From a virus: 64,000 nt of DNA. This document shows, one piece after another, positions 18,878 through 21,243 of this stretch (positions are counted from its first letter, which is position 1; each line of letters opens with the position of its first letter). The position numbers were made by a program, and so were the translations under genes. Under the pieces are notes generated by a model. That model made no database searches. It saw only the letters and a list, made by a program, of their open reading frames with translations, and had not been told where the DNA came from. Location of the stretch: the IMG/VR virus record IMGVR_UViG_3300008120_000016, positions 1 through 64,000 of that record, one strand, 5' to 3'.

Positions 18878-19654
18878 ATGGCTACAAAAATTGCTACAGC
18901 AAAACAGTTTTACAAAGAAGCATTAAAAAATATTAAATGGCTTTCTTTAACAGGTAATATTAAATTTAATTACCTGGCAGGTATTAACAGAGCTATTAAT
19001 CCTGGTCAAGTGACTAAGCTTGCTAAATCATTAGAAATGATGGGTATTATTAGACCTGTTGTTATAGCCGAATTATCATTTGTAAATGGTAAATTGTCTA
19101 AATACATAATAGACGGTCAGCATATTTTTAACGCATTGATTAGACTTGGTTGGGAAATACCATATGTTATTATTAAAGTGGATAGTAAACAAGATCTTGT
19201 AGAGAAAATAGCAATGTTAAATGCTAGTTCTAAAACATGGAGTATGCAAGATTATGTAACTGCCTGGTCAAGCTTAAAAGAAGATTATGTAAAGCTAAAT
19301 CATTATTTTCAAGTGTATGATTTAGAAATAACAGAACTTGCTGCCATTCTTATGGGTAATATAAGAGGTGGTGGTAACATAACAAAAATTCTTAAGGCAG
19401 GTGAGTTTAGAATTATTAATGAGCAAAAAAACGTAGGTATTCTTAACAATCTTACAGACATGCTCAAGGTGGTACCAAGAATGAACAGATTTGAAAACAG
19501 ATATGCTGTTAAAGAGTATGTTAAATTCTTGAGATCTACACCTAAATATGATCATAAAGTATTTTTAGCAAAGCTTTCTAAAAACAAAGAAAAGTTTATT
19601 CTTGCTACACAAGAAGAAGGTAAACTTTCTGAACTCTTTGAAAAGCTTTCTTAA
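18878..19654 (+). CDS. ParB/Srx-like N-terminal domain protein
   Basis: NRAIN...VTKLAKSLEMMGIIRPVVI...YIIDGQH motif of the ParB/sulfiredoxin fold. Confidence 0.7.
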   Translation: MATKIATAKQFYKEALKNIKWLSLTGNIKFNYLAGINRAINPGQVTKLAKSLEMMGIIRPVVIAELSFVNGKLSKYIIDGQHIFNALIRLGWEIPYVIIKVDSKQDLVEKIAMLNASSKTWSMQDYVTAWSSLKEDYVKLNHYFQVYDLEITELAAILMGNIRGGGNITKILKAGEFRIINEQKNVGILNNLTDMLKVVPRMNRFENRYAVKEYVKFLRSTPKYDHKVFLAKLSKNKEKFILATQEEGKLSELFEKLS

Positions 19655-19947: not shown

Positions 19948-20226
19948 ATGAAGAATCCAAGACTCAAAGGAGGATATGGTATGGTAACAAGCAATGTTCT
20001 TAGAAACCCGGACATTTCCTTAAGAGACAAAGGACTCTATTCATATTTAGCTACATATGCAAATTCTGATAATATACTAACAGTTAGTATAAACAGAGCA
20101 GCAAATGAATGCGGTGTTGATGAATCTACTATAAAAAGAATCCTTGACAGTTTAAAGAAACAAGGAATAATTATCCGTGAACAAAGAGAACAAGGTAAAA
20201 GTTACAAAACCACACTTGTAAAATAA
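19948..20226 (+). CDS. Winged HTH DNA-binding protein
   Basis: DISLRDKGLYSYL...SINRAANECGVDESTIKRILDSLKKQGII resembles the HTH of phage replication initiators. Confidence 0.7.
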   Translation: MKNPRLKGGYGMVTSNVLRNPDISLRDKGLYSYLATYANSDNILTVSINRAANECGVDESTIKRILDSLKKQGIIIREQREQGKSYKTTLVK

Positions 20227-20535
20227 TTATGTAAACTTACACTATAGGTTTGCATGGACTTCCCTATTTGTATATACTATAGTATGATACTATTAGGTTC
20301 TCAGTCCACACCTTATTTATCTGACGTCAGGAGCCTATAGAGTATTAACGTGAAGCAACAGATGTACTATGACCAGCTAGTAGTGTCCCTGACATGATCA
20401 ATTAGGCCTGGGAAAACACGAAGACTCAGTAATTATGGGATCTATCGCAGACAACTTAGAACTATAGTCCCTGATGTGGATAAATTTGGTAATATTGTGG
20501 ATTTTTACATAAATTTGGTATTAAAACCAATTATT

Positions 20536-20676
20536 ATGTACAAAAGAGTAGCACGAAACATCAGTAAAGAAGGAAATTCTTACAGAGTTCGTTATCAAAA
20601 AAATGGTAAACGATTTTCAAAGTTCTTTTCTAAAAGAACAGAAGCAATAGCTTATAAGAAAAAAGTTATTGGTTGA
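20536..20676 (+). CDS. Small basic protein, AP2/Arm-like DNA-binding domain
   Basis: MYKRVARNISKEGNSYRVRYQKNGKRFSKFFSKRTEAIAY; start reassigned to the ATG at 20536. Confidence 0.5.
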   Translation: MYKRVARNISKEGNSYRVRYQKNGKRFSKFFSKRTEAIAYKKKVIG

Positions 20677-20687
20677 AATTGTTTAGA

Positions 20688-20762
20688 AGTCAAGTAGCTC
20701 AGTTTGGTCAGAGCATCCGTCTGATACGCGGAGGGTCATAGGTTCAAATCCTGTCTTGACTA
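20688..20762 (+). tRNA. tRNA-Ile(GAT)
   Basis: AGTCAAG/CTTGACT acceptor, TCCGT-CTGATAC-GCGGA anticodon arm, GGTTCAAATCC T loop. Confidence 0.93.
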
Positions 20763-20768
20763 CAAACT

Positions 20769-21176
20769 GGGGGTGCCCGGTATTGACAGCAAATGGAAGG
20801 TAAGCACACACGCAGAGGTAAGGGTCTATTCCTCTATAATCAATGATTCAAATTTTAAGCGACAACACAACTGTTGAACTTTCTGACTACACTTTCGAAT
20901 CTCTGCTTGCAGAACTCGAAACTTCTGAGCTTGAATTAGCTTAAGTTAGGCGAGGAGCTATCCTGGGAACAGAAAATAGCACATAGTTTTCCTGATTTTG
21001 TCCTTGTGACATAAAACTTAATAGAAAATCAGGTGGTGGAGCTGTTCTAGCTGGTTTGCTAGTTCCTCATACGGTGCAAAATGTTTGGGATCTTTCCAGC
21101 ATTTAGTACTAAGCGTGTGATACGTTGTGTTTATTGTTTCTTTGTTTGGACAGGGGTTCGACTCCCCTCACCTCCA
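20769..21176 (+). ncRNA. ssrA: tmRNA
   Basis: GGGGGTG/CACCTCC acceptor with G3:U70 and discriminator A; GAC after the D loop; CAGGGGTTCGACTCCCC T arm; internal tag ORF ending TTAGCTTAA. Confidence 0.93.
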
Positions 21177-21243
21177 CTGGTGTTTTCCGTCAAGCTAAGA
21201 ATATCCTGATGTTTCTACATTGGGATTTTTTTAATTTTATATT

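Follow-up and report, generated by a model that had tools for sequence, protein, structure and literature searches.

A distant crAss-like phage encodes a one-piece tmRNA with a long, acidic tag

The peptide tags encoded by tmRNAs are textbook short degrons. The commonest tag length overall is 10 residues (PMC11915505), and in a sample of Bacteroidota tmRNAs we found tags of 8-10 residues in 52 of 54 cases, nearly all of them ending in Ala-Ala. Longer tags have been described in Mycoplasma and Mesoplasma, where a 27-residue ssrA tag is read by Lon, a documented association of tag length with a change of protease (PMC8403727; PMC9382460). Phage tmRNAs have been listed several times (PMC4131195; PMC9004378; PMC7162821), among them those of mycobacteriophage Bxz1 and other cluster C1 phages (PMC4131195). 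Bxz1 (NC_004687) carries a one-piece tmRNA beside tRNA genes, with a strongly acidic tag of 25 residues that ends in a hydrophobic terminal pair other than Ala-Ala. The gut crAss-like phages offer a second point of comparison: in cr7_1 (NC_055895) and phages like it, the tmRNA lies in the early/middle gene region, and ARAGORN calls it as a small permuted (two-piece) molecule with a 13-residue tag. In the literature searched, no paper discusses long phage tmRNA tags, that of Bxz1 included.

Here we describe a tmRNA encoded in the first 64 kb (the window) of a 124.7-kb IMG/VR virus record that is estimated to be 96% complete. Matches to phage families were obtained for the portal, large terminase, DNA polymerase and helicases. 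The terminase shares about 25-27% identity with its counterparts in crAss-like phages of Bacteroides, Flavobacterium and Cellulophaga, which makes the virus a distant crAss-like phage; judged from this backbone alone, its host would belong to the Bacteroidota. Metagenome runs containing the stretch come from 17 studies and mostly carry lake or freshwater labels, with five labelled 'fungus metagenome'. ARAGORN calls three RNA genes in the window, including tRNA-Ile(GAT) and a one-piece tmRNA at 20769-21177(+) whose tag is coded by gene positions 93-176 (20861-20944 with the stop; Table 1). Rfam RF00023 matches 20769-21179 along the full model (model positions 1-374) at E 9e-32; the score, 85.6 bits, exceeds the gathering threshold of 47. 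The identification as a tmRNA, made in an earlier note from the letters of the sequence, is shared by both programs. Given their 5-nt spacing, the tRNA-Ile and tmRNA genes are probably co-transcribed. Just 5' of this unit are genes for a ParB-N-like protein (18878-19654(+), whose Pfam match is weak and under the cut-off) and an HTH_36 protein (19948-20226(+)); both proteins are conserved across the phage group and served as synteny anchors.

Table 1. Features of the tRNA/tmRNA unit, in window coordinates.
Feature	Position	Strand	Basis or remark
tRNA-Ile(GAT)	20688..20763	+	ARAGORN; Rfam RF00005, 68.1 bits; 5 nt 5' of tmRNA
One-piece tmRNA gene (ssrA), CCA not encoded	20769..21177	+	ARAGORN; Rfam RF00023; family alignment and RNAalifold
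Acceptor stem, 5' strand	20769..20775	+	G3 (20771) pairs with U70 (21173), the alanine identity pair
Pseudoknot 1, holding the non-conserved in-frame ATG (20843-20845)	20814..20849	+	Rfam structural alignment
Frame-setting sequence UAAGC 5' of the resume codon; A at -4 = 20857	20856..20860	+	Conserved -4 A
Tag reading frame, 27 codons, resume codon GAC (Asp)	20861..20941	+	ARAGORN and Rfam agree
Tag-frame stop, TAA	20942..20944	+	ARAGORN and sequence
Small hairpin at the helix-5 position, with the last sense codons and stop	20920..20947	+	RNAfold
T arm, acceptor stem 3' strand and discriminator A	21152..21177	+	Rfam; family alignment
Terminator-like hairpin with T run, 26 nt past the tmRNA	21203..21232	+	Consensus scan only

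Related IMG/VR contigs were fetched via the neighbouring proteins, and more via conserved RNA motifs, with family members identified by ARAGORN, Rfam and tblastn of the tags. The same tmRNA family occurs on at least 20 IMG/VR contigs, mostly with the same crAss-like backbone. Within this group the gene is accessory: two complete relatives have no tmRNA at all, while another complete relative has it. When the neighbours of 13 family loci were clustered, no protein family was found always to flank the tmRNA, and its position in the syntenic early-gene block varies.

The RNA has the architecture of a canonical bacterial tmRNA. Like the Bacteroidota molecules with ..YALAA or ..YAMAA tags, it combines a G3:U70 acceptor stem, a T arm, helix 2, pseudoknot 1, an A at -4, a resume codon starting with G and downstream pseudoknots, and its stop codon likewise sits beside a helix-5-like hairpin. 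Its covariance score above threshold, a tRNA-like domain with a 7-bp acceptor stem, a T arm and no anticodon arm, the defined resume codon and the in-frame stop place it in RF00023. In an alignment of 13 family members, 26 of 46 RNAalifold pairs show compensatory changes; co-variation extends to the T arm and helix 2 as well as to the acceptor stem, where pairs 4 and 5 switch from G-C to C-G in 3-4 of the 13 members and the G3:U70 pair is invariant in all of them. Hairpins resembling helix 5 were predicted by RNAfold in four family members, none of them significant singly against shuffles. In four freshwater metatranscriptome studies, contigs span 20812/20822-21177 with zero mismatches, and one ends exactly at 21177, the predicted 3' end, while 20769-20811 and the flanks are without such cover apart from one low-depth piece (20400-20548). 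This pattern fits a discrete, abundant RNA, with the proviso that contigs from RNA libraries are not strict proof of transcription. Comparative evidence of this kind, together with the analysis of the tag below, shows what we take to be a functional, phage-encoded one-piece tmRNA that adds a selected 27-residue peptide.

What sets it apart from the Bacteroidota tmRNAs is the tag, with 27 residues, a Leu-Ala end and a net charge of -8 against 9-10 residues and an Ala-Ala end, and its residence in a phage without SmpB. A cellular donor or host tmRNA was considered and rejected, as BLAST against 55 Bacteroidota tmRNAs found similarity confined to the 3' tRNA-like end, and a pattern built on the pseudoknot region matched 89 times in 185,579 species genomes, none of the matches being a tmRNA. 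An exact 22-mer from the 5' end of the tmRNA had no match in IMG/VR. In GenBank phages, blastn of the tmRNA region matched only the adjacent tRNA gene and the 3' tRNA-like end, and tblastn of both tag types (see below) returned nothing at E up to 10. The cr7_1-type tmRNAs, which share the Crassvirales backbone and the genomic region, align with that of the window only in the 3' tRNA-like end, and by BLAST the same is all that the window's family shares with the other sampled long-tag families.

Where translation resumes determines what the tag is, and here several lines of evidence converge. ARAGORN and an alignment to the Rfam consensus concur on GAC 20861. The spacer between pseudoknot 1 and this codon is 11 nt, the same as in E. 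coli tmRNA, and the A at -4 matches A86 of E. coli, the dominant frame determinant there (PMC2481249); it is retained in all family members checked. Resume codons across the family all start with G (GAC, GGC, GCT, GTA), and Asp as the resume codon has precedents, though few (PMC1168896). Frame 0 alone is open in 13 of 13 aligned members, the other two frames having stops in most; in the window the +1 frame is open by chance, yet it is stopped in most other members. Read from GAC, the tag has 27 residues, of which eight are Asp or Glu and none Lys or Arg (net charge -8), and ends in ELELA. The earlier note had proposed a frame of 28 codons at about 20858-20944, with eight acidic residues and an ELELA end: the frame, the acidic residues and the end are all borne out by the raw sequence, and the length becomes 27 codons because AGC 20858 is the -1 triplet. 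It had also pointed to an in-frame ATG at 20843 from which a 33-residue peptide could be made. The ATG is there, would give that length, and stands in a frame open from 20840, but it falls within pseudoknot 1 of a tmRNA whose identity is well supported, most relatives lack it (it occurs only in the window, L033/L445 and L049), and in several members a stop stands three codons ahead of the resume codon, so that we give an ordinary small gene almost no credence.

Across the family, tags have 23-28 codons in every member and fall mainly into two types. Type A tags, near that of the window, end in LELA, LALA or AVLA, and type B tags have their first residues in common with type A, a different body, and AVAA, AIAA or ALAA at the end. 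The last residue is always Ala and the penultimate one Ala, Leu or Phe, with net charges of -6 to -8 in the window's lineage versus -1 to -3 in the sister type. A comparison of tags across related phage tmRNAs, suggested at the outset as a check, thus yields a consistent picture of long tags with a C-terminal hydrophobic residue plus Ala throughout. A third type occurs in a tmRNA at L441:1501-1910(+), the tag of which has 23 residues, is acidic and ends in ATFA, recalling the ..AFA end of Mollicutes tags; it has a 7-residue core in common with type A.

The distribution of substitutions indicates that the tag is maintained as a peptide. In seven type A tags, variable sites number 10, 7 and 18 at first, second and third codon positions (P 0.02), and the bias holds for codons 1-16 taken by themselves (5, 3 and 11; P 0.024); pooled over five tags, pN/pS is 0.26. 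The Ser of codon 14 switches between TCT and AGT, and the Leu of codon 19 between CTT and TTG. Type B tags have the same trend in weaker form (12, 12 and 22; pN/pS 0.55; P 0.1 for the first 16 codons). At the level of peptide conservation, then, the third-position bias, the low pN/pS and the changes of Ser and Leu codon family are those of a translated frame. The end of the tag behaves differently: all ELELA members agree nucleotide for nucleotide over the five final sense codons plus stop, and the upstream codons have many synonymous changes, so conservation there may partly act on the RNA. Taken together, the sole open frame, the third-position bias, the conserved -4 A and the G-starting resume codons indicate, on comparative grounds, that the frame is translated from GAC 20861 and that its peptide is under selection, and a peptide under selection implies that something reads it.

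Two other explanations of the frame have to be weighed against this evidence. Resumption might take place well downstream, at codon 17, an Ala codon in the same frame (GCA 20909), which would give an ordinary 11-residue tag and leave the conservation upstream to RNA alone; the earlier note had named such a short tag as the outcome that would overturn its proposal. In both tag types an Ala codon does stand in frame 11-12 residues ahead of the stop, and Ala is the commonest first tag residue (PMC1168896), but there is no A at -4 before codon 17, which is 59 nt past pseudoknot 1, both programs put the resume codon at 20861, and RNA-level conservation does not explain the third-position bias of codons 1-16 or the TCT/AGT switch at codon 14. 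We therefore regard a downstream start as very improbable. Somewhat less remote, but still improbable, is that ribosome release alone matters; the long frame would then have arisen neutrally as a single-stranded region expanded, and nothing would read its peptide. In E. coli, tmRNA function is little affected by changes to the tag sequence (PMC2481249), and the accessory nature of the gene in these phages is in keeping with such a role, but the third-position bias, the pN/pS of 0.26 and the Ser codon-family switches show peptide selection, and the length is kept at 23-28 codons across divergent members.

Whether the tag is a degron is a separate question. The [LAV]-A-A terminus recognized by ClpXP is present in type B tags and is replaced in the window by E-L-A. 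In engineered tags, acidic residues near the end weaken ClpX recognition. E-L-A differs from LAA at two of the three positions that are important for E. coli ClpX (reviewed in PMC9382460). On the other hand, family ends are always hydrophobic plus Ala, with AVAA, AIAA and ALAA in the sisters, and the degron is thus altered rather than shown to be lost: the early description of a tag lacking the ALAA degron was right about the terminus and went too far if read as loss of the signal. A Leu-Ala end occurred in 5 of 64 sampled tags, all from the window's family. The idea that the tag appends a functional acidic helix fared less well. In its amphipathic form it finds no support, since shuffled versions reach the same maximal hydrophobic moment as the tag (P about 0.46); when AlphaFold was given the 34-residue read-through peptide as a single sequence, it did place a helix over tag residues 12-26, an observation that carries little weight.

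No SmpB, ClpP, Lon, S41 protease, GroES, GroEL or Hsp70 was found in the 96%-complete phage genome, so rescue and any proteolysis depend on host factors, and we infer that host SmpB, EF-Tu and AlaRS are used. The best explanation as a whole, which we think somewhat likelier to be right than wrong, is a working, host-dependent phage tmRNA with a tag that is a two-part degradation signal; by analogy, such a signal is the most likely role of the peptide itself, at roughly even confidence. A tRNA-Ile/tmRNA precursor would probably be made first; host AlaRS would then load alanine onto the tmRNA, and host SmpB and EF-Tu would bring it to ribosomes that have stalled on broken messages during infection. 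Translation would resume at GAC 20861, adding the 27-residue acidic peptide, and the ribosome would be released at TAA 20942. The C-terminal hydrophobic residue and Ala could serve as the handle for a host AAA+ or tail-specific protease, with the conserved acidic body as an extra binding site for the protease or an adaptor. Both parts have precedents, in the 27-residue Lon-specific Mycoplasma tag (PMC8403727; PMC9382460) and in the SspB site of the E. coli tag (PMC9382460). It counts against this reading that neither an adaptor gene nor a protease gene accompanies the tmRNA at the 13 family loci. Within the window's lineage, the shift from Ala-Ala to Leu-Ala and the greater acidity suggest a changed reader or a changed rate of degradation.

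An alternative that we consider distinctly less probable, yet worth keeping in view, is that the tag is not a degron and that the acidic peptide shields rescued proteins from host ClpXP, maintains their solubility or flags them for a reader that is not a protease, in line with the earlier note's suggestion that tagged proteins are protected or redirected. It draws on the replacement of Ala-Ala by Leu-Ala in the window's lineage and its more negative charge relative to the sister type, on the recurrence of long acidic tags in sequence-distinct phage tmRNA families, and on the fact that ELELA plus the stop is nucleotide-identical in a divergent tmRNA (below), which suggests a selected, exchangeable module. 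Moreover, phage growth in E. coli requires rescue and not the tag (PMC2481249), so a conserved phage tag calls for an explanation of its own. But the hydrophobic residue plus Ala persists in every member, with AVAA and ALAA in the sisters, which makes the family as a whole look degron-like; no partner gene is linked to the tmRNA at the 13 loci; the phage has none of the chaperonin, Hsp70, ClpP or Lon genes; and the tag has no significant similarity to any phage protein. A more specific and somewhat more doubtful proposal is that the Leu-Ala acidic tag is a phage-specific address label: the phage, out-competing the host tmRNA, would put on every rescued polypeptide an acidic tail that escapes ClpXP and is bound by a dedicated host or phage reader, and the ELELA-plus-stop module would be exchanged between divergent phage tmRNAs for that specificity.

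Mimicry of phage-protein C termini by the tag was examined and set aside: one of the three proteins described next shares a 4-residue word with the tag, and a blastp-short search with three tags over every ORF of the 124.7-kb genome returned no E better than 0.08, as expected by chance. The same genome encodes, at about 101700-102700 of G000:C1 (L142:1231-2185, -), three adjacent proteins of 43, 108 and 152 aa that share the same 23-residue C-terminal peptide; this peptide has no significant similarity to the tmRNA tag.

The divergent tmRNA mentioned above lies at L444:502-908(-), on IMG/VR contig 3300003890_000082. It departs from the window's family in its acceptor stem, in pseudoknot 1 and in its 28-residue acidic tag body, and the final 18 nt of its tag (ELELA plus stop) are exactly those of the family, which suggests, from these sequences, exchange of the tag 3' module between phage tmRNAs. 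A mosaic of another kind is seen at L049:2048-2449(-), where a 5' half that nearly matches those of L033 and the window, pseudoknot 1 included, is joined to a type B tag ending in AIAA. From the shared end in the one and the mosaic in the other, tag modules seem to be exchanged, or else the end is constrained as RNA plus peptide.

How unusual is such a tag? The length had been called abnormal, and relative to the Bacteroidota sample it is, being about three times as long; relative to phages it is not, as 30 of 42 distinct standard-form phage tags in our IMG/VR sample, which is biased by the search motifs, have at least 15 residues, many of them acidic. The tag falls into an informal class of phage-borne tags of at least 15 residues that are net acidic and conserved among related phages. 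The Bxz1 tag is likewise long and acidic, but it comes from another host phylum and phage type, and tblastn found no similarity between the tags; in the Bxz1 stretch L437 (NC_004687:98559-101995) the tmRNA belongs to a tRNA cluster and, like that of the window, is immediately preceded by a tRNA gene. The Mollicutes tag matches in length and differs in end and body, being hydrophobic/aromatic-rich, ..AFA-ending and cellular where that of the window is acidic, ELELA-ending and viral, with no sequence similarity, so that its likeness to a Lon tag of that type is one of analogy only.

The tmRNA family is a new one of a known kind of gene, and belongs to a recurrent, unstudied class of long phage tags. 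Within one family, the tag end changes from Ala-Ala to Leu-Ala while the body turns strongly acidic, and ELELA versus AVAA ends on near-identical RNAs (e.g. L033 versus L049) form natural tag pairs with which the reader of long phage tags could be sought. Should that reader be something other than the usual protease, every rescued protein of an infected cell would have its fate reprogrammed by the phage; if the usual protease reads the tag, the family would be a modest extension of known tag diversity.

Two observations bear on how such tags are called. A 512-nt family member at L004:4074-4585(+), with a large insertion in the pseudoknot region and a tag ending in AVLA, was missed by ARAGORN, as were several other members, and found by Rfam (88.7 bits), so censuses that use ARAGORN only undercount phage tmRNAs. 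In Sediminibacterium soli (L385, G002:C13:127665-128036), ARAGORN reports a basic tag of 19 residues, unlike all other sampled Bacteroidota, which may be a wrong resume-codon call.
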